Shown here: piece by piece, positions 1 to 7,517 of the stretch
How positions within the stretch are numbered: position 1 is the stretch's first letter
Layout: each line of letters begins with the position of its first letter
IMG/VR virus record: IMGVR_UViG_2706794686_000005
DNA from: a virus
Taxonomy: Duplodnaviria > Heunggongvirae > Uroviricota > Caudoviricetes
Direction: 5' to 3' (one strand)
DNA length: 7,517 nt
The notes under the pieces: model-generated
Databases searched by the model: none
What the model saw: the letters and a program-made list of their open reading frames with translations, nothing else
Told to the model about the DNA's origin: nothing
Translations under genes and position numbers: made by a program

Positions 1-87
1 CCCCGGCAGCCTTCAGGGAAAAATATCATCAGATGGCTGCTTAAAAAAAGAACAAATGGTAGTGTCCGCTATTGCCAGTACACCTCA
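1..87. repeat. Left copy of an 87-bp perfect inverted repeat; its reverse complement is 7420..7506
   Basis: Manual reverse-complement of 7420..7506 matches 1..87 base for base; match breaks at 88 vs 7419. Window begins exactly at the repeat boundary. Confidence 0.9.
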
Positions 88-286
88 TCCATCACCGAAA
101 AAAATTGGCTTTTACACCATTGGCGATAAAAGCATTTACCTGTATGACCTACGCCGCATGGATGAAATCATGGAGGCTCTTGATAATCGTTCGTCGATGG
201 ATTGGTGTGTTGCTGTTCATGATATGAATGCAGGGTTTGATGAAAAGATTTTGTTCCCCTCATCAGTTGAAAGCACTGCGGGTTAA
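56..286 (+). CDS. Hypothetical protein (76 aa from ATG 56); frame is open back to position 2, so may be 5'-partial
   Basis: ORF in track; no Shine-Dalgarno before ATG 56 (aaaaaagaacaaATG); no in-frame stop between position 2 and 56; first 10 codons lie inside the inverted repeat. No family recognised. Confidence 0.35.
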   Translation: MVVSAIASTPHPSPKKIGFYTIGDKSIYLYDLRRMDEIMEALDNRSSMDWCVAVHDMNAGFDEKILFPSSVESTAG

Positions 287-296
287 GGAGTAACAC

Positions 297-464
297 ATGA
301 CCACTATTACCAAAGAACGTATTGAATTGTTCATTAAAAACCCGCTTGAAAACGGGCTTACCCGTGGTGAACAAATGGAACTGGCACGGATTGCGCTGGC
401 ATCGCTGGAAGCAGAGCCGGTTGTGTTCTGGTTTGAAAAATATCAAGAAGGGGCTACGGCATGA
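297..464 (+). CDS. Small hypothetical phage protein, 55 aa ([12 protein letters not shown]...); not in the ORF track (below length cutoff)
   Basis: Strong RBS AAGGAG at 285..290, 6 nt before ATG 297; stop TGA overlaps next start as ATGA at 461..464; shares motif [10 protein letters not shown] with the 114-aa ORF downstream. Confidence 0.5.
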
Positions 465-805
465 CGACTTTTACCAGAGAGCAGTTAATAGCTCACGCAG
501 AGGAGACTATTGAAGCACAGAGACTGTGCATACCGGGCACAATCGACCATGACATCATCCGCACATATAAGATGGATATTGCTGTTCTGGAAATCGCACT
601 GGTATCGCTGGCAGCAGAGCCAGCCGGTAAATTGCATGAATACAAACCAGTGGGATATCAGCGTCTGGTCGATGAGTTAACCATGCTGGTAAAGCAGTTA
701 ACCTGGCAACTGAGGAAAGCGAAGCCAGACTGCAAATTACCGGATAAGGCGATGAGTTATCTGGAGCGGAACGGACTGATAAGCGTGGAGGATATTTTAC
801 GATGA
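461..805 (+). CDS. Hypothetical phage nin-region protein, 114 aa
   Basis: ORF in track; ATGA overlap with upstream ORF; purine-rich aagggg 8 nt upstream; paralogous motifs shared with the 55-aa and 80-aa ORFs. No family recognised. Confidence 0.55.
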
Positions 806-885
806 CCTGGCCTGAAGCATTAACAACGGTAGGAATTGCGATGGCGGTGGCGCTGGTGGTGTATTCGATTTGCCGCTGGGGATAA
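802..885 (+). CDS. Putative small hydrophobic peptide, 27 aa ([27 protein letters not shown])
   Basis: ATG 802 overlaps the stop of the 114-aa ORF (ATGA); single predicted membrane-spanning hydrophobic stretch; too short for statistical support. Confidence 0.25.
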
Positions 886-1096
886 AAACGGTTTGCGGGA
901 AAAGGAGAGTTAAGTAGAATTGCAGCGGGTGCTTGAGGCTATCTGTCTCAGGCATGAACACCAAAAGGCAGATAGAGAAAAGCCCCAGTTAACATTACGC
1001 GTCCGGCAAGACGCTTAACATTAATCTGAGGCTCAATCTATGAACGGCAAATCTAGGTTAGCCTCTTACGTGCCGAAAGGCAAGGAGAAGCAGGCT

Positions 1097-1252
1097 ATGA
1101 AGCAGCAAAAGGCGATGTTAATCGCCCTGATCGTCATCTGTTTAACCGTCATAGTGACGGCACTGGTAACGAGGAAAGACCTCTGCGAGGTACGAATTCG
1201 AACCGGCCAGACGGAGGTCGCTGTCTTCACAGCTTACGAACCTGAGGAGTAA
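1097..1252 (+). CDS. hokD: Hok/Gef family type I toxin, 51 aa (host-killing membrane peptide); closest to HokD/RelF by memory
   Basis: Translation MKQQKAMLIALIVICLTVIVTALVTRKDLCEVRIRTGQTEVAVFTAYEPEE matches the Hok family signature (N-terminal TM helix, conserved Cys, C-terminal TGQTEVAVFTAYE) as I recall it; SD AGGAG at 1083..1087. An in-frame upstream ATG at 1040 (SD GAGG 1028..1031) would give a 70-aa extended form. Confidence 0.85.
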   Translation: MKQQKAMLIALIVICLTVIVTALVTRKDLCEVRIRTGQTEVAVFTAYEPEE

Positions 1253-1320
1253 GAGACCAGGCGGGGGAGAAATCCCTCGCCACCTCTGATGGGGCAGGCA
1301 TCCTCAATGCACCCACACTT

Positions 1321-1347
1321 AACCCGCTTCGGCGGGTTTTTGTTTTT
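1321..1347 (+). terminator. Rho-independent terminator after hok
   Basis: Stem CCCGC (1323..1327), TTCG tetraloop, GCGGG (1332..1336), followed by TTTTTGTTTTTATTTT. Confidence 0.7.
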
Positions 1348-1360
1348 ATTTTCAACGCGT

Positions 1361-1390
1361 TTGAAGTTTTAGATGGTGCCGGAATAGAAT
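1361..1390 (+). promoter_or_regulatory. Putative sigma70 promoter for the downstream operon
   Basis: TTGAAG (1361..1366), 18-nt spacer, TAGAAT (1385..1390); sequence match only. Confidence 0.3.
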
Positions 1391-1472
1391 CAAAAATACT
1401 TAAGTAGCGCGCAGGGAGAAGAGGGATGGACCCCGAACAGGGGAGTGCTATTTATCTGGAAGGATTCTGTTG

Positions 1473-1754
1473 ATGAAAATCGAAGAATTACGTGAAATTT
1501 TTAGTGAAGATGGCCTCTATACTGTGCGCGTTGAGAATGGCGCTATTGTCAGCCACTGCCTTCCAGACTACACAATTCTGATAATTCAGCCGTCTTTGCC
1601 AGCAGGCACGGGCGGCGCTCTCACGCATTTAAATCTGATTGGTACCAGCATCCCCCATGCACTGAAGAACAGGCCGAATGGCTCATTCAGTGTTACCGCA
1701 GGCGCGGATGCGAGGTTAAAAAAGCCCTTAGCCTCGACTACCGTCACTGGATAA
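1473..1754 (+). CDS. Hypothetical protein, 93 aa (MKIEELREIFSEDGLY...)
   Basis: ORF in track (TTG 1470 / ATG 1473); SD GGAAGGA at 1459..1465. Sits where rem-like genes lie upstream of ydfU in some prophages, but family not recognised. Confidence 0.45.
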   Translation: MKIEELREIFSEDGLYTVRVENGAIVSHCLPDYTILIIQPSLPAGTGGALTHLNLIGTSIPHALKNRPNGSFSVTAGADARLKKPLASTTVTG

Positions 1755-1829
1755 TCTCCGTCAGGCTCCCTTACTCCGAACGGCCAACGCGTCCGTCCCG
1801 CACATTCCAGCAACGGATCTGGAGGTAAT

Positions 1830-2888
1830 GTGCGGGTATTACTTCGACCTGTTCTGGTACCGGAACTCGGTCTGGTTATCGTTAAGCCAGGCCGTGAATC
1901 AATGTCAGCATTCCATAACGGCAGAATACTGGTGGAGCCGGAACCAAAAAGCATGCGTAATCTGCCGTCCGGGGTCGTTCCTGCCGCTCGCCAGCCGCTG
2001 GTGGAAGACAAAACATTGCTGCCGTTTTTCAGTAACGCACGGGTGATTCGTGCTGCTGGTGGTGCTGGTGCATTGTCTGACTGGCTGTTGCGCCATATTA
2101 AATCCTGCCAGTGGCCACACGGCGATTATCATCACAGCGAAACCGTCATTCACCGTTATGGTACCGGCGCAATGGTGTTGTGCTGGCACTGCGACAACCA
2201 GCTGCGTGACCAGACATCCGAATCACTCGAGCAACTTGCTCATCAAAACCTGTCAGCATGGATGATTGACGTCATCGGTCACGCAATAAGCGGTACGCAG
2301 GAGCGTGAATTATCTCTGGCTGAATTATCCTGGTGGGCGGTCCGCAATCAGGTGGCGGACGCGCTACCGGAAGCGGTATTACGTCGTTCGCTGGGGTTGC
2401 GTGCGGAAAAAATTCGCTCTGTGTACAGTGAAAGCGACATCATACCGGGAGAGCAGACAGCCACCAGCATACTGAAGCAGCGCACAAAAAATATTGCGTT
2501 ACTGCCTCACGTCCACCAGCAACAGAACCCACCACAGGAAAAGACGGTGGTCAGCATTGCCGTTGATCCGGAGTCACCGGCTCAGTATCTCCAGCGCCAG
2601 AAATCACAACGGGAAGAGATGCCTGTATACACGCGCTGGGTAAAAACGCAGAAATGCATGACGTGTGGCAATCAGGCAGATGATCCGCATCACATCATTG
2701 GTCATGGACTGGGAGGGATGGGAACAAAGGCTGATGATTTGTTTGTTATTCCGTTATGCCGTAAATGCCGTAACGAACTACATGCCGGAGTAAAAGATTT
2801 TGAAGAGAAACACGGCAGTCAGCTGTTGTTGCTGATTCGTTTTTTAATGCACGCGAGAAATTCGGGTGTTCTGAAGTGGAAAGCATAA
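1830..2888 (+). CDS. YdfU-like DUF968 family prophage protein, 352 aa, with C-terminal Cys/His cluster
   Basis: Long ORF; GGAGG at 1821..1825 before GTG 1830 (alternative start ATG 1902); C-terminal motif CMTCGNQADDPHH...CRKCRNELH resembles the DUF968 zinc-binding region; position immediately upstream of rusA and Q is typical. Confidence 0.75.
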   Translation: MRVLLRPVLVPELGLVIVKPGRESMSAFHNGRILVEPEPKSMRNLPSGVVPAARQPLVEDKTLLPFFSNARVIRAAGGAGALSDWLLRHIKSCQWPHGDYHHSETVIHRYGTGAMVLCWHCDNQLRDQTSESLEQLAHQNLSAWMIDVIGHAISGTQERELSLAELSWWAVRNQVADALPEAVLRRSLGLRAEKIRSVYSESDIIPGEQTATSILKQRTKNIALLPHVHQQQNPPQEKTVVSIAVDPESPAQYLQRQKSQREEMPVYTRWVKTQKCMTCGNQADDPHHIIGHGLGGMGTKADDLFVIPLCRKCRNELHAGVKDFEEKHGSQLLLLIRFLMHARNSGVLKWKA

Positions 2889-3269
2889 ATGACCGAGCGC
2901 ATAGAATTTGTTTTACCTTACCCGCCGACGGTGAACACTTACTGGCGTCGTCGTGGCAGCACATATTTTGTATCAAAAGCCGGGGAGCGTTATCGCCGGG
3001 CAGTGGCGCTTATTGTTCGCCAGCAGCGGCTGAAATTAAGCCTGTCCGGAAGGTTGGCAATAAAAATTATTGCAGAACCACCGGATAAGCGCCGCCGTGA
3101 CCTGGACAATATTCTGAAAGCGCCGCTGGATGCGCTGACGCATGCGGGGTTGCTAATGGACGATGAGCAGTTTGATGAAATCAATATCGTTCGTGCTCAG
3201 CCAGTATCTGGTGGACGTCTGGGGGTGAAGATTTATCCCATAATGCTTGAAGGGCAGGTCAAAAAATGA
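2889..3269 (+). CDS. rusA: Crossover junction endodeoxyribonuclease RusA (Holliday junction resolvase), copy 1, 126 aa
   Basis: Translation contains the RusA acidic core PDKRRRDLDN...DALT...DDEQ; start abuts the ydfU-like stop; stop overlaps next ATG (ATGA). Confidence 0.9.
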   Translation: MTERIEFVLPYPPTVNTYWRRRGSTYFVSKAGERYRRAVALIVRQQRLKLSLSGRLAIKIIAEPPDKRRRDLDNILKAPLDALTHAGLLMDDEQFDEINIVRAQPVSGGRLGVKIYPIMLEGQVKK

Positions 3270-3471
3270 AACTGGAAGATTTACCGAAATACTACTCCCC
3301 AAAATCCCCCGGCCTGACTGATGCATCGGCCTCAACGTCGAAAGATGCGCTGAGTATCACTGATGTGATGGCCGCGCAGGGCATGACACAGAATCGGGCT
3401 GAGATGGGGGTTTCTGCGTTCCTTGGGAAAATGGGCATTAGTATGAATGACAGAGAGCGGGCAACAGAATT
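3266..3471 (+). CDS. Lambda-Q-family antiterminator, N-terminal 69 codons only; 3' part lost in N-run 3472..3721 and probably truncated or chimeric
   Basis: MKLEDLPKYYSPKSPGLTDASASTSKDALSITDVMAAQGM... aligns with the lambda Q N-terminus (MRLESVAKFHSPKSPMMSD...SGTDVMAAMGM). In-frame sequence after the gap (WLSGDSGGQSTDIFCLWTRKVHGCFPLP*) does not resemble a Q C-terminus, and the total would be 180 aa at most. Confidence 0.5.
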
Positions 3472-3721
3472 NNNNNNNNNNNNNNNNNNNNNNNNNNNNN
3501 NNNNNNNNNNNNNNNNNNNNNNNNNNNNNNNNNNNNNNNNNNNNNNNNNNNNNNNNNNNNNNNNNNNNNNNNNNNNNNNNNNNNNNNNNNNNNNNNNNNN
3601 NNNNNNNNNNNNNNNNNNNNNNNNNNNNNNNNNNNNNNNNNNNNNNNNNNNNNNNNNNNNNNNNNNNNNNNNNNNNNNNNNNNNNNNNNNNNNNNNNNNN
3701 NNNNNNNNNNNNNNNNNNNNN
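3472..3721. other. N-run, 250 nt of unresolved or masked sequence
   Basis: Run of n in the sequence. Confidence 1.
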
Positions 3722-3887
3722 TGGTTGTCTGGAGATTCAGGGGGCCAGTCTACGGACATTTTCTGCCTGTGGACCAGGAAAGTGCACGGGTGCTTTCCAC
3801 TCCCATGAAGCCCGGCAATCCGCGCAGATACAGTAATAAACGAACTGACAGCAGTAAGATGGAGCGTTTCTTTTGAACAACCAGACA

Positions 3888-4130
3888 ATGACTTTTACCC
3901 CTGAACAATTGCGTAAACACGCGCAGGAAATGCTGCGTCATGCTGAACAACTCGAAAAAACGGGCATAACAAAAGACGCTATCCGTAAAGATATGGTACC
4001 CGCGCTTCGGGAACTGATGCAGGCGAAGCATCGCGCACAGAAAGCAGTAGATGAGCTGGTGGACTGTGTGGCAGAGCTGGAAACCAGAGTCGGAAAGTTT
4101 GAAAAACTGGTGCAGGAGGTGCTGCGCTGA
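3888..4130 (+). CDS. Hypothetical protein, 80 aa from ATG 3888 (85 aa from TTG 3873); predicted helical/coiled-coil
   Basis: ORF in track; stop TGA 4128..4130 overlaps the rusA copy 2 start (TGATG); N-terminus MTFTPEQLRKHAQE resembles the 114-aa [18 protein letters not shown]; weak RBS. Confidence 0.45.
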   Translation: MTFTPEQLRKHAQEMLRHAEQLEKTGITKDAIRKDMVPALRELMQAKHRAQKAVDELVDCVAELETRVGKFEKLVQEVLR

Positions 4131-4504
4131 TGCGCCATGAGTTTATTTTACCTTATCCGCCGACGGTGAATACTTACTGGCGACGTCGTGACAACACATA
4201 TTTTGTATCAAAAGCCGGTGAGCGTTATCGCCGGGATGTGGCGCTTATTGTCCGTCAGCAGCGACTGAAATTAAGCCTGTCCGGAAGACTGGCGATAAAG
4301 ATTATTGCAGAGCCACCGGATAAGCGCCGTCGTGACCTGGACAATATCCTGAAAGCACCACTGGATGCACTGACACATGCGGGAGTGTTAATGGACGATG
4401 AGCAGTTTGATGAAATCAATATCGTTCGTGGTCAGCCAGTATCTGGTGGACGTCTGGGGGTGAAGATTTACCCCATAATGCATGAAGAGCAGGTCAAAAA
4501 ATGA
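4130..4504 (+). CDS. rusA: Crossover junction endodeoxyribonuclease RusA, copy 2, 124 aa; divergent paralogue of copy 1
   Basis: Same RusA core motifs; SD AGGAGG at 4113..4118; differs from copy 1 at the N-terminus and at 7 internal residues, with many synonymous nucleotide differences. Confidence 0.9.
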   Translation: MRHEFILPYPPTVNTYWRRRDNTYFVSKAGERYRRDVALIVRQQRLKLSLSGRLAIKIIAEPPDKRRRDLDNILKAPLDALTHAGVLMDDEQFDEINIVRGQPVSGGRLGVKIYPIMHEEQVKK

Positions 4505-5175
4505 AACTGGAAGATTTACNNNNNNNNNNNNNNNNNNNNNNNNNNNNNNNNNNNNNNNNNNNNNNNNNNNNNNNNNNNNNNNNNNNNNNNNNNNNNNNNN
4601 NNNNNNNNNNNNNNNNNNNNNNNNNNNNNNNNNNNNNNNNNNNNNNNNNNNNNNNNNNNNNNNNNNNNNGCCCTTGTTGCTATGGGGAAAAATTTATTGA
4701 AAGCGTAGTTTTTACAAACAAGGTCCAGTATCCGGATGGTAAGCCGCCGGTATGGGCAAAGTGTACGAAAGGTGTGTATCCGTCTTACTGGGAAGAATGG
4801 AAAAAAGTCAGGGAGGTGGTAAAAGTTGCCTGTCCGGAGTGTGGCGGAAAGGGTGAGGTTTCCACCGCCTGTAAGGATTGCCGTGGGCGTGGTGTCGCCA
4901 TTCATCGTGAAGAGTCGGTAAAACGTGGTATGCCTGTTATCAGAGACTGCCAGCGTTGTGGTGGTCGTGGCTATGAAAGACTACCATCAACGGAGGCATT
5001 TAATGCTATATGCGAGGTGACAAACCAGATAACACGCGCGTCATGGGAAAAAACAGTTAAGAAATTCTATGATGCGCTGGTGACTCGGTTTGATATTGAA
5101 GAAGCATGGGCTGAGCGGCAGTTAAAAAAGGTAACTAGGTTGATTTTTCCGGAATCTGTGGTAAATTCGTCATAA
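4501..5175 (+). CDS. Q: Lambda-Q-family late-gene antiterminator, 224 aa; codons 7..56 masked by N-run
   Basis: ATGA coupling to rusA; first 19 nt identical to the Q fragment at 3266; zinc-finger-like CPECGGKG...CKDCRGRG...CQRCGGRGY and C-terminal TVKKFYDALV parallel lambda Q (CRDCHGTG...CGRCKGVGY...TVKPLYDALV). Confidence 0.8.
   Translation: MKLEDLXXXXXXXXXXXXXXXXXXXXXXXXXXXXXXXXXXXXXXXXXXXXXXXXXXXPCCYGEKFIESVVFTNKVQYPDGKPPVWAKCTKGVYPSYWEEWKKVREVVKVACPECGGKGEVSTACKDCRGRGVAIHREESVKRGMPVIRDCQRCGGRGYERLPSTEAFNAICEVTNQITRASWEKTVKKFYDALVTRFDIEEAWAERQLKKVTRLIFPESVVNSS
4520..4669. other. N-run, 150 nt, inside Q
   Basis: Run of n in the sequence. Confidence 1.
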
Positions 5176-5178
5176 CTA

Positions 5179-5215
5179 TGGGCGTTTTATGCCTGACGTT
5201 AGAAGAGTTTCTACA
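5179..5215. repeat. 37-bp direct repeat, copy 1 (tgggcgttttatgcctgacgttagaagagtttctaca), ending at N-run
   Basis: Identical to 5483..5519; true extent unknown because the inner side of each copy abuts N. Confidence 0.85.
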
Positions 5216-5482
5216 NNNNNNNNNNNNNNNNNNNNNNNNNNNNNNNNNNNNNNNNNNNNNNNNNNNNNNNNNNNNNNNNNNNNNNNNNNNNNNNNNNNNN
5301 NNNNNNNNNNNNNNNNNNNNNNNNNNNNNNNNNNNNNNNNNNNNNNNNNNNNNNNNNNNNNNNNNNNNNNNNNNNNNNNNNNNNNNNNNNNNNNNNNNNN
5401 NNNNNNNNNNNNNNNNNNNNNNNNNNNNNNNNNNNNNNNNNNNNNNNNNNNNNNNNNNNNNNNNNNNNNNNNNNNNNNNNNN
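5216..5482. other. N-run, 267 nt, in the expected pR'/qut position downstream of Q
   Basis: Run of n in the sequence. Confidence 1.
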
Positions 5483-5519
5483 TGGGCGTTTTATGCCTGA
5501 CGTTAGAAGAGTTTCTACA
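5483..5519. repeat. 37-bp direct repeat, copy 2
   Basis: Identical to 5179..5215. Confidence 0.85.
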
Positions 5520-5520
5520 A

Positions 5521-5542
5521 CCCGCCGCCGAGCGGGTTTTTT
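5521..5542 (+). terminator. Rho-independent terminator, tR'-like, downstream of Q
   Basis: Stem CCCGC (5521..5525), loop CGCCGA, GCGGG (5532..5536), then TTTTTT; the CGGG-TTTTTTAT ending resembles the lambda tR' 3' end as I recall it. Confidence 0.65.
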
Positions 5543-5662
5543 ATGACTGAAATCGCGTCAGTACAGTAAACGCGCTGGTGGCGGTGAATACCTGTCTTTC
5601 AGCTTGCTGGCTTTTTCGACAAGAGTTATTGGTGTGTCACGTTAACCGGAAAAGGAAAAGAC

Positions 5663-6370
5663 ATGCTAAAACAGCAGGATATGACAGAAACCGCCAGAGT
5701 GGTGTTTAATGAATTAAGCGTTNNNNNNNNNNNNNNNNNNNNNNNNNNNNNNNNNNNNNNNNNNNNNNNNNNNNNNNNNNNNNNNNNNNNNNNNNNNNNN
5801 NNNNNNNNNNNNNNNNNNNNNNNNNNNNNNNNNNNNNNNNNNNNNNNNNNNNNNNNNNNNNNNNNNNNNNNNNNNNNNNNNNNNNNNNNNNNNNNNNNNN
5901 NNNNNNNNNNNNNNNNNNNNNNNNNNNNNNNNNNNNNNNNNNNNNNNNNNNNNNNNNNNNNNNNNNNNNNNNNNNNNNNNNNNNNNNNNNNNNNNNNNNN
6001 NNNNNNNNNNNNNNNNNNGATTGAGTGTTTGTTATACGGTCTAATGGTTTTTTCAGCATTAAATATTTATCATTCATATGGTGTGGGTAGAGTGAATATT
6101 GATGAGGCGTCGGGGTGTTTCATCCTTAGGCAGCGTATTGATATAGTCAATGCAGCACGAGCAAAGGCCTTCAGCCGTTTGACAGTTTTGTTCTGTACTC
6201 CTGATCGTCTTTCGGGAAGAGACGTTATTATTCTGAATAGTGATGCTATACAGAGGGTTTGCGATGAGTTCATGGTTGCTAATTCAGAATTATTTGCTCT
6301 TGTTCAGGAGTACAACAGAATAGCCAGGACCTGTGGTATGGATGAACTTCGGATTACTCATCTGGGGTAG
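5663..6370 (+). CDS. Hypothetical cargo protein; 235 aa only if N-run 5723..6018 preserves frame and hides no stop; otherwise two genes
   Basis: Good RBS (aaaaggaaaag) before ATG 5663; 117 open codons after the gap; AT-rich codon usage with rare AGG/AGA/ATA/CTA; competing minus-strand ORF 5706..6077 lacks an RBS. No family recognised. Confidence 0.4.
   Translation: MLKQQDMTETARVVFNELSVXXXXXXXXXXXXXXXXXXXXXXXXXXXXXXXXXXXXXXXXXXXXXXXXXXXXXXXXXXXXXXXXXXXXXXXXXXXXXXXXXXXXXXXXXXXXXXXXXXXIECLLYGLMVFSALNIYHSYGVGRVNIDEASGCFILRQRIDIVNAARAKAFSRLTVLFCTPDRLSGRDVIILNSDAIQRVCDEFMVANSELFALVQEYNRIARTCGMDELRITHLG
5723..6018. other. N-run, 296 nt, inside the cargo ORF
   Basis: Run of n in the sequence. Confidence 1.
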
Positions 6371-6696
6371 ATACATATCTGGATTATCACCTGTTACGGT
6401 AAAAAGTGATTGCTTACTGTTTTTGTGAATGGCATTGCAGCAGCCGGATAATGTCAGTGCTGGCTGACGGTGTGCTGGTGGCGGGTGTGGTGGTTGTTGC
6501 TTTCCCGTTGCTGAAAAAGAAAACGCCAGACTGTTAGCCGGGTATCAGTTAGCGGGAGAAATTTTTAAATACTTCACAATTCAGGCGGTTGACTGTTGTC
6601 TGGTTTGCGGGGAGTTTGTTAAAAGAAACTGGCATGGTGAATCCCCCTGTGCGGAGGGGCTGTTTATATTGATTTTGTCAGATGTGAGTAAACTCC

Positions 6697-7032
6697 TTAT
6701 GGACTTTGTTGTTTTAGTCCATAAGGACATATTTGCAGAGTGCAACGGTTATTAAAGCATTCATTCAATACGTTATCTGTATTTGTAGGGCATTCCTGGC
6801 TATTTTTGATTGAATTCCAGAATGTTTTATTGAATGGTACTACGTTGTAAATGGTTACAGGTAGCACTTTGTTATTGAGCATGATGCCTGTGTGAGTCAG
6901 TGTAAATATACTTTCAGGAGGTAAGAAAGCATCCGATTGATACCAGATTATTAATTTTATTTTACTCCATATGACTGAAAAAGATATTCCGCATGATGGC
7001 TGGATAACTGTATCAATCACAATCCACTTCAT
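6697..7032 (-). CDS. Hypothetical protein, 111 aa, Cys/Trp-containing, in AT-rich DNA
   Basis: Minus-strand ORF with no overlapping plus-strand gene; RBS AAGGA about 6 nt before the ATG (plus-strand 7030..7032 is cat); candidate promoter TTTACA-N17-TACTTT upstream on the minus strand. No family recognised. Confidence 0.45.
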
Positions 7033-7292
7033 TTAGTTTCCTTGTTTATGCCTTGCTGGTGATGTTCTGAAAAGTATAAATGATATTTTTGAATGTAAAC
7101 CATAGAGCAGAATTATTTTTCTGATGTTGTTTATTGTTTATTTAAATGCAGGGTGGTTTATATCTCGTCTTGTAGTTTATCCATGCATATCTGCTTGATA
7201 ATCAGGTTTTTATTTAAGGTATGGTTTTGTGTTTTTTCTGTATTACATGTCAGGTATTTTAAAGAATTATTTTTCAGATGGTGGAAAGAACC

Positions 7293-7466
7293 ATGGCATT
7301 TAAACACTATGATGTTGTCAGGGCGGCGCCGCCGTCAGATCTTGCGGAAAAGCTGACACATAAACTGAAAGAGGGCTGGCAGCCGTTTGGTAGTCCGGTG
7401 GCCATAACCCCTTATACCCTGAGGTGTACTGGCAATAGCGGACACTACCATTTGTTCTTTTTTTAA
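7293..7466 (+). CDS. Small hypothetical phage protein, 57 aa (MAFKHYDVVRAAPPSDLAEKLTHKLKEGWQPFGSPVAI...); last 15 codons encoded by the right inverted-repeat copy
   Basis: ORF in track from ATG 7278; ATG 7293 preferred because of ggaaag upstream; the GWQP.G motif is reminiscent of small phage proteins in the DUF1737 class, but that is uncertain memory. Confidence 0.4.
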   Translation: MAFKHYDVVRAAPPSDLAEKLTHKLKEGWQPFGSPVAITPYTLRCTGNSGHYHLFFF

Positions 7467-7506
7467 GCAGCCATCTGATGATATTTTTCCCTGAAGGCTG
7501 CCGGGG
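7420..7506. repeat. Right copy of the 87-bp perfect inverted repeat (reverse complement of 1..87)
   Basis: Verified by manual reverse-complement in 10-nt blocks; followed by 11 nt (agatattcccc) to the window end. Confidence 0.9.
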
Positions 7507-7517
7507 AGATATTCCCC

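Follow-up and report, generated by a model that had tools for sequence, protein, structure and literature searches.

An apparent Q-gene junction in a Shigella sonnei-like draft scaffold: probably a join of two paralogous prophage remnants

A gene for a lambda-Q-family antiterminator (Q1) begins in this 7,517-nt stretch of DNA (the window), then gives way to a run of Ns and to sequence that leads into a second rusA-Q pair. Does this arrangement record an antiterminator gene that was cut short and fused to a second module, or was it assembled from pieces that lie apart in the genome? The first-pass annotation, made from the letters alone, had taken it for a module junction with a breakpoint in or near 3472..3872. 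We compared the window with finished Shigella sonnei chromosomes, with sibling draft contigs from IMG/VR, and with complete E. coli genomes. Two chromosomal loci proved relevant, called the type-1 (left) and type-2 remnants below.

The Q1 stub and the gap that follows it

The left side of the apparent junction reads as follows.

2889..3269, + strand: RusA1, a 126-aa RusA-family Holliday-junction resolvase of the type-1 (left) remnant (ORF list; Pfam PF05866)
3266..3808, + strand: Q1 ORF read through Ns (ORF list, 180 aa)
3266..3471, + strand: readable 5' part of Q1, a lambda-Q-family antiterminator of the type-1 remnant (68 codons plus 2 nt)
3472..3721, no strand: N-run of 250 nt, most plausibly a scaffold gap between contigs of two loci, its length unreliable

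The Q-like N-terminus reported at 3266 is real and lies far above chance. The 68 readable residues are 50% identical to residues 1-66 of lambda Q (taken from NC_001416; E 2e-22), and the stub passes the Pfam Antiterm family (PF03589) with 46.8 bits against a cut-off of 26.7. Equally sound was the description of what comes next: the N-run spans exactly 250 nt (3472..3721), and the sequence to its right is unrelated, with none of the three frames Q-like. Past 3471 the readable sequence contains neither the Cys-rich zinc-binding region nor the C-terminal domain of Q; the N-run is followed by an IS2 end and the tail of a helicase gene.

The claim that Q1 is truncated found no support in finished S. 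sonnei chromosomes, which carry a complete Q1 of 273 aa with its zinc-finger region. Window 1..3471 is 99.97% identical to two loci (L009 and the finished L032) in which the Q1 gene extends to this length, with the Cys-rich region and the C-terminal domain in place. Q1 was intact at 273 aa in 10 of the 10 finished type-1 loci examined; in one further record (L013) the gene is split into two called ORFs, one of 58 aa and one of 214 aa. The exact RusA1 protein adjoins a full-length Q in many finished genomes, as found by exact-protein look-up. The apparent truncation of Q1 is probably not biological, and it is unproven since the N-run is the sole link between the stub and the second module.

An IS2 end, a helicase remnant and a second rusA-Q unit

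To the right of the N-run, the window contains the following features.

3722..3752, - strand: terminal 31 nt (IRL end) of IS2, IS3 family (annotated IS2 ends; alignment with the finished locus L016)
3753..3757, no strand: CGGAC, right-hand copy of the 5-bp IS2 target-site duplication, the sole copy visible in the window
3753..3876, + strand: what is left of a prophage replicative helicase gene of the DnaB type: its 3' end, from the last base of codon 423 through codons 424-463 to the stop
3777..3798, + strand: small hairpin inside the helicase coding remnant (GGAAAG at 3777, CTTTCC at 3793)
3873..4130, + strand: 85-aa ORF, with a TTG start that overlaps the helicase stop (ORF list; sub-threshold Pfam matches only)
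4130..4504, + strand: RusA2, a 124-aa RusA resolvase of the type-2 remnant (exact-protein look-up)
4501..5175, + strand: Q2, a lambda-Q-family antiterminator of the type-2 remnant (true gene 855 nt, 284 aa)

The IS2 end (TGGATTTGCCCC...) was recognized from its distribution and its neighbors. Of 5426 complete E. coli genomes, 4814 contain the 39-mer at 3722..3760 (median 4 sites each), and this 39-mer matches the ends of annotated IS2 or IS3-family elements at 97-100%. Where genes annotated as "IS3-like element IS2 family transposase" lie at the 39-mer, it stands in the end position and the gene is on the opposite strand. The finished locus L016 is 100% identical to window 3722..4519, and there the IS2 end aligns with annotated IS2 positions 1176-1331 at 99.4% identity. 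The window shares with IS2 the terminal 31 nt, and the finished-genome element is flanked by CGGAC; the window differs in that these last 31 nt are all that is visible, and the finished copy differs in being interrupted by an IS21-family element and lacking 46 nt. The element points leftward, so that its transposase would sit on the minus strand inside the gap. In finished loci the transposase is present, disrupted by the IS21-family element; in L016 the split IS2, with istA and istB of the IS21-family element and with 46 nt of IS2 missing, occupies 2276..5623.

L016 also reveals how IS2 came to its site. It brackets the element as ...TATAACGGAC, IS2, CGGACATTTT..., with CGGAC on both sides and helicase sequence on both sides, which argues for simple transposition into the helicase gene and places the far end of IS2 outside Q. 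In the same locus, IS600 interrupts the helicase gene 41 nt further upstream of IS2. The helicase remnant in the window is 100% identical to intact helicase genes of 463 aa, and its translation is their C-terminus, ...YNGHFLPVDQESARVLSTPMKPGNPRRYSNKRTDSSKMERFF. Residues 177-422 of the 463-aa protein make up the DnaB_C domain, which is therefore absent from the remnant (codons 424-463), a non-functional gene fragment. The sole biological breakpoint in the flagged interval is thus the outer end of IS2 at 3752/3753; the proposed breakpoint in 3472..3872 stands to this extent, with the correction that it marks an IS2 end inside a helicase gene and not inside Q. Neither the IS2/helicase junction nor the arrangement as a whole was found in any record of the complete E. 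coli genome search, in which the best match covers 79% of the window and is a prophage with single copies of DUF968, RusA and Q.

The helicase remnant contains a hairpin to which the first-pass annotation had drawn attention. The stem letters are present at 3777..3798, and the stem extends to 9 bp with two G-U pairs, but its stability is no better than chance (z -1.20; an equal or better fold in 28 of 200 shuffles). Six-bp stems of this kind number 16 in the window, against 14.3 +/- 4.6 expected. The hairpin is not followed by a T-run, and the corresponding interval of L016, a finished locus of identical sequence, yielded no terminator-like site. We therefore rejected it as a terminator or regulatory element.

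A second RusA-Q module does follow, as had been proposed; its first element, however, is the 3' tail of the helicase gene and not the small gene of 80 (here 85) aa. In intact relatives the 85-aa ORF always comes directly after the helicase gene, and the overlap of the helicase stop with the TTG start is that of intact prophages. The exact RusA2 protein occurs in finished S. sonnei chromosomes, where the order is IS2::IS21, helicase remnant, 85-aa ORF, RusA and Q. Q2 measures 284 aa in 10 of 10 finished type-2 loci examined, matches Antiterm and DnaJ_CXXCXGXG, and ends in the tail LIFPESVVNSS, which Q1 lacks because of an 8-nt indel. A terminator-like hairpin lies downstream of Q2 at 5519..5538, with no promoter-like site found; finished type-1 loci have holin genes downstream.

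Both genes are at home in the lambda Q family (PF03589). The Q1 stub has the family's N-terminus, complete Q1 and Q2 from finished genomes give end-to-end alignments with lambda Q, and both genes lie between rusA and a terminator-like hairpin, in the customary nin-Q order. They differ from lambda Q in length, 273 aa (Q1) and 284 aa (Q2) against 207 aa. The extra roughly 66 residues correspond to an expanded Cys-rich insert with sub-threshold similarity to DnaJ CXXCXGXG. A further difference is that only 68 codons of Q1 can be read in the window.

The neighborhood of IS2 and rusA2 recalls a known case. In K-12 rus-1 and rus-2, IS2 or IS10 inserted upstream of the DLP12 rusA activates that gene (PMC1636454). 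In the window, the IS2 end likewise lies upstream of rusA2, at 377 nt, with the helicase stub and the 85-aa ORF between them. In the equivalent finished L016 sequence, a search of the stretch from the IS2 end to rusA2 found no outward sigma-70-like promoter. We take the likeness as a resemblance only and have rejected an outward IS2 promoter driving rusA2, as no promoter-like site was found.

Two loci in finished S. sonnei chromosomes

Finished chromosomes were retrieved by exact-protein look-up of RusA1, RusA2 and the 352-aa DUF968 protein. Among the accessions, HE616528.1 and CP019689 are S. sonnei 53G and 75/02 (PMC5447701). All five readable segments of the window match a single finished S. 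sonnei chromosome, CP104423.1, at one or the other of two loci, L032 (type 1) and L016 (type 2).

1..3471: L032 (about 1.86 Mb), CP104423.1, 99.97% identity
3722..4519: L016 (about 2.53 Mb), CP104423.1, 100%
4670..5215: L016, CP104423.1, 100%
5483..5722: L032, CP104423.1, 100%
6019..7517: L016, CP104423.1, 100% / 99.8%

The two loci lie 669 kb apart in the same orientation on CP104423.1, and a second chromosome-length record, CBDDMI010000001.1, has the same separation (L033 and L017). Every switch of source between L032 and L016 falls inside an N-run. The order of features at each locus is given below.

Type 1: IS600, three small ORFs, hok/sok, Rem-like ORF, DUF968, RusA1, Q1 (273 aa), methyltransferase, IS600
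Type 2, left part: IS600, 41 nt of the helicase gene, IS2 split by an IS21-family element, last 40 helicase codons
Type 2, right part: 85-aa ORF, RusA2, Q2 (284 aa), tRNAs, DUF3927 and STnc100, IraM, truncated DUF1737, IS600

The arrangement of the window occurs in none of the finished records examined (10 type-1 and 10 type-2). The two loci share a near-identical rusA-Q unit, with exact repeats of 343, 69, 63 and 56 nt. The type-2 stretch that is missing from the window after Q2 holds two prophage tRNA genes; such genes are typical multi-copy gap-formers. Both ends of the window are IS600 (87 nt at 1..87 and 98 nt at 7420..7517), inverted and 100% identical to annotated IS600 in L001, which gives the window the appearance of a complete short scaffold with collapsed IS copies at its ends.

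The four N-runs in the window are listed here; the finished loci provide a measure of two of them.

3472..3721: 250 nt
4520..4669: 150 nt
5216..5482: 267 nt
5723..6018: 296 nt

The run at 4520..4669 has flanks 100% identical to finished L016, where 330 nt separate them. Since 150 Ns stand for 330 nt, Q2 is really 284 aa long, and its apparent 224 aa are a product of the N-run. In finished loci of both types, the flanks of the run at 5216..5482 have a 37-nt overlap; the window accordingly has an exact 37-nt direct repeat (5179..5215 and 5483..5519), which lies inside the 63-nt exact repeat common to both loci. The 267-nt gap is therefore spurious. As N-runs are not true to length, the lengths of 180 aa (the maximum for Q1) and 224 aa (the downstream copy), which the first-pass annotation had used as evidence of truncation, presuppose what is contradicted and are meaningless. 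We infer that scaffolding left the N-runs as gaps and that the strain is similar to those with finished genomes. Searches for the 6660/6661 junction, which is specific to the window, in viral, genome and metagenome collections, and for the IS2/helicase junction in the genome collection, did not recover the window itself.

Six sibling contigs in IMG/VR have the identical IS2/helicase junction, and they arrange the type-1 and type-2 pieces in six different orders. Their switches of type occur across gaps or inside exact repeats of both loci; the repeats at gap-free switches are listed here.

L029a: 69 nt
L028 and L030: 343 nt
L029b: 63 nt

The place of the N-run 3472..3721 is taken in sibling drafts by 318 or 818 positions of differing content. 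L027 breaks into a gap at the very same position as the window, and an IS21 end and 128 nt of IS2 come next. L029 continues for 27 more bases identical to finished Q1, followed by a gap and about 790 nt of IS2 interior. Q1 sequence that reads into an IS end was found in none of the records; the link is always N. The assembler may have produced the uninterrupted IS2 path in L029 by walking along a generic IS2 consensus.

Several other differences between the window and its relatives were observed. At 6660/6661 the window lacks 121 nt that are present in every relative. In L016 these 121 nt lie inside a full-length Rfam STnc100 match (RF02076, 132 bits; 8278..8467), and the window has no STnc100 match, so that the sRNA gene appears internally deleted in this strain. 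The Rem-like gene has a 250-bp presence/absence polymorphism at 1560/1561: the extra 250 bp are present in L027 (71..320), L029 and the finished L039 (about 7482..7731) and absent from the window, L009 and L032, which have a fused 94-aa ORF (1470..1754 in the window). A link between this 250-bp difference and the 250-nt N-run was considered and rejected, as the difference is a real strain polymorphism in the Rem-like gene. The window also carries a hok/sok type I toxin-antitoxin at 927..1252, with sok RNA (Rfam RF01794, 112 bits) and a Hok-family ORF at 1040..1252. In two finished records, L038 (LR213449.1) and L041 (CP045932.1), type 1 has on its left the sequence (genes of 139, 107 and 203 aa followed by IS600) that other strains carry to the right of type 2; this swap implies that IS600 mediated an inversion of about 0.67 Mb between the remnants.

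Scaffold join or rearrangement

The reading that we favor, with a probability of about 0.8, is that the apparent junction is a scaffolding join of two paralogous IS-riddled prophage remnants, and that truncation of Q1 is not demonstrated. It draws on the identities of the pieces, their separation in finished genomes, the unreliable lengths of the N-runs and the target-site duplication. The window would be a short draft scaffold of an S. sonnei-like genome, bounded by collapsed IS600 copies, in which contigs of two paralogous IS-eroded lambdoid remnants were threaded into one string with N-filled gaps. The left branches A (the Q1 side) and B (the IS2/helicase side) would have been placed one after the other ahead of the shared Q segment, and the two right branches in series behind it, because short-read assemblers cannot separate the shared rusA-Q repeats. 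The stretch 3472..3721 would be one such join. Independently of the assembly, IS2 transposed into the prophage helicase gene at 3752/3753 and left the 5-bp duplication CGGAC. The first-pass annotation had named a frame shift as the artifact that could undo its claim; the artifact here appears to be a scaffold join instead.

The window has much in common with mis-scaffolded paralogous prophages: contigs that end in IS elements, gaps at repeats, wrong gap sizes, overlapping flanks, two interleaved loci, and sibling assemblies that order the pieces differently. It departs from them in that no obvious long repeat has its boundary at the contig end 3471. Contig A breaks off at Q1 nt 206, and in a map of diagnostic sites no long exact Q1/Q2 repeat starts there. 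Simple collapse of a Q1/Q2 repeat was therefore rejected as the reason for the stop, and a further cause is needed; candidates are assembler heuristics, low coverage and a third copy of Q.

Could the strain instead have undergone a real event, in which IS2 or IS600, or recombination in rusA-Q, moved the type-2 module into Q1? Q1 would then end after about 70-80 codons, and next to it would come IS2, in part or in full, then the helicase tail and the second RusA-Q. That the Q1 stub lies upstream of the IS2/helicase contig in three independent drafts (the window, L027 and L029) is in keeping with such an event, as is the occurrence of IS600-mediated rearrangements between these two loci in some finished S. 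sonnei strains (L038 and L041). The gap-free contig L030, in which RusA2 and a hybrid Q are joined to type-1 downstream sequence, leaves room for real exchange between the loci. Against this, no record reads through from Q1 into an IS element, Q1 in L029 is unbroken up to its gap, and IS2 in finished genomes has helicase sequence and target duplication on both sides. The window, moreover, has type-1 sequence again at 5483..5722 and type-2 sequence after that, so that three further exchanges (four in all) would be required, each hidden by an N-run. The arrangement was seen in none of the 10 type-1 and 10 type-2 finished records examined, and with the loci in direct orientation 669 kb apart, simple crossing-over would delete the interval between them. 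We consider a real rearrangement unlikely.

Another reading takes the N-runs for length-preserving masks on a true contiguous sequence, in which case Q1 would be fused within 250 nt to an IS2 remnant of <=281 nt and Q2 would have an in-frame 180-nt deletion. Some sequence collections do contain masked stretches, and 150 and 330 are both multiples of 3, which makes an in-frame deletion formally possible. Masks blind to content, however, would have to coincide with three source switches, and also with the 180-nt length discrepancy and a 304-nt apparent insertion flanked by the 37-nt repeat; the constant 284-aa length of Q2 in finished type-2 loci (10 of 10) likewise speaks against a deletion. 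This reading strikes us as very unlikely. It is also very unlikely that IS2 activates rusA2 in the manner of rus-1, or that the remnants are truly fused in this strain as tandem rusA-Q units.

Under the scaffold-join reading, the "module junction" is not a real biological feature and is best classed as an ordinary artifact combined with known IS2 and IS600 decay. All of its components are known: an antiterminator of the lambda Q family, RusA, IS2 with a 5-bp duplication, IS600, and eroded Shigella lambdoid prophages. In Shigella, the IS2 insertion in the prophage helicase gene, the IS600 truncations and the two paralogous rusA-Q remnants are well known. A genuine junction would add one more case of IS-mediated prophage rearrangement and would matter only locally. 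If IS2 did activate rusA2, it might switch on RusA2, and possibly Q2, and so could provide a constitutive back-up Holliday-junction resolvase in an IS-laden pathogen. The broader meaning of the locus is a caution for genomes rich in IS elements and prophages, such as those of Shigella: N-runs in draft scaffolds can fake truncations, tandem duplications and module junctions, and the lengths of ORFs read through them are untrustworthy.
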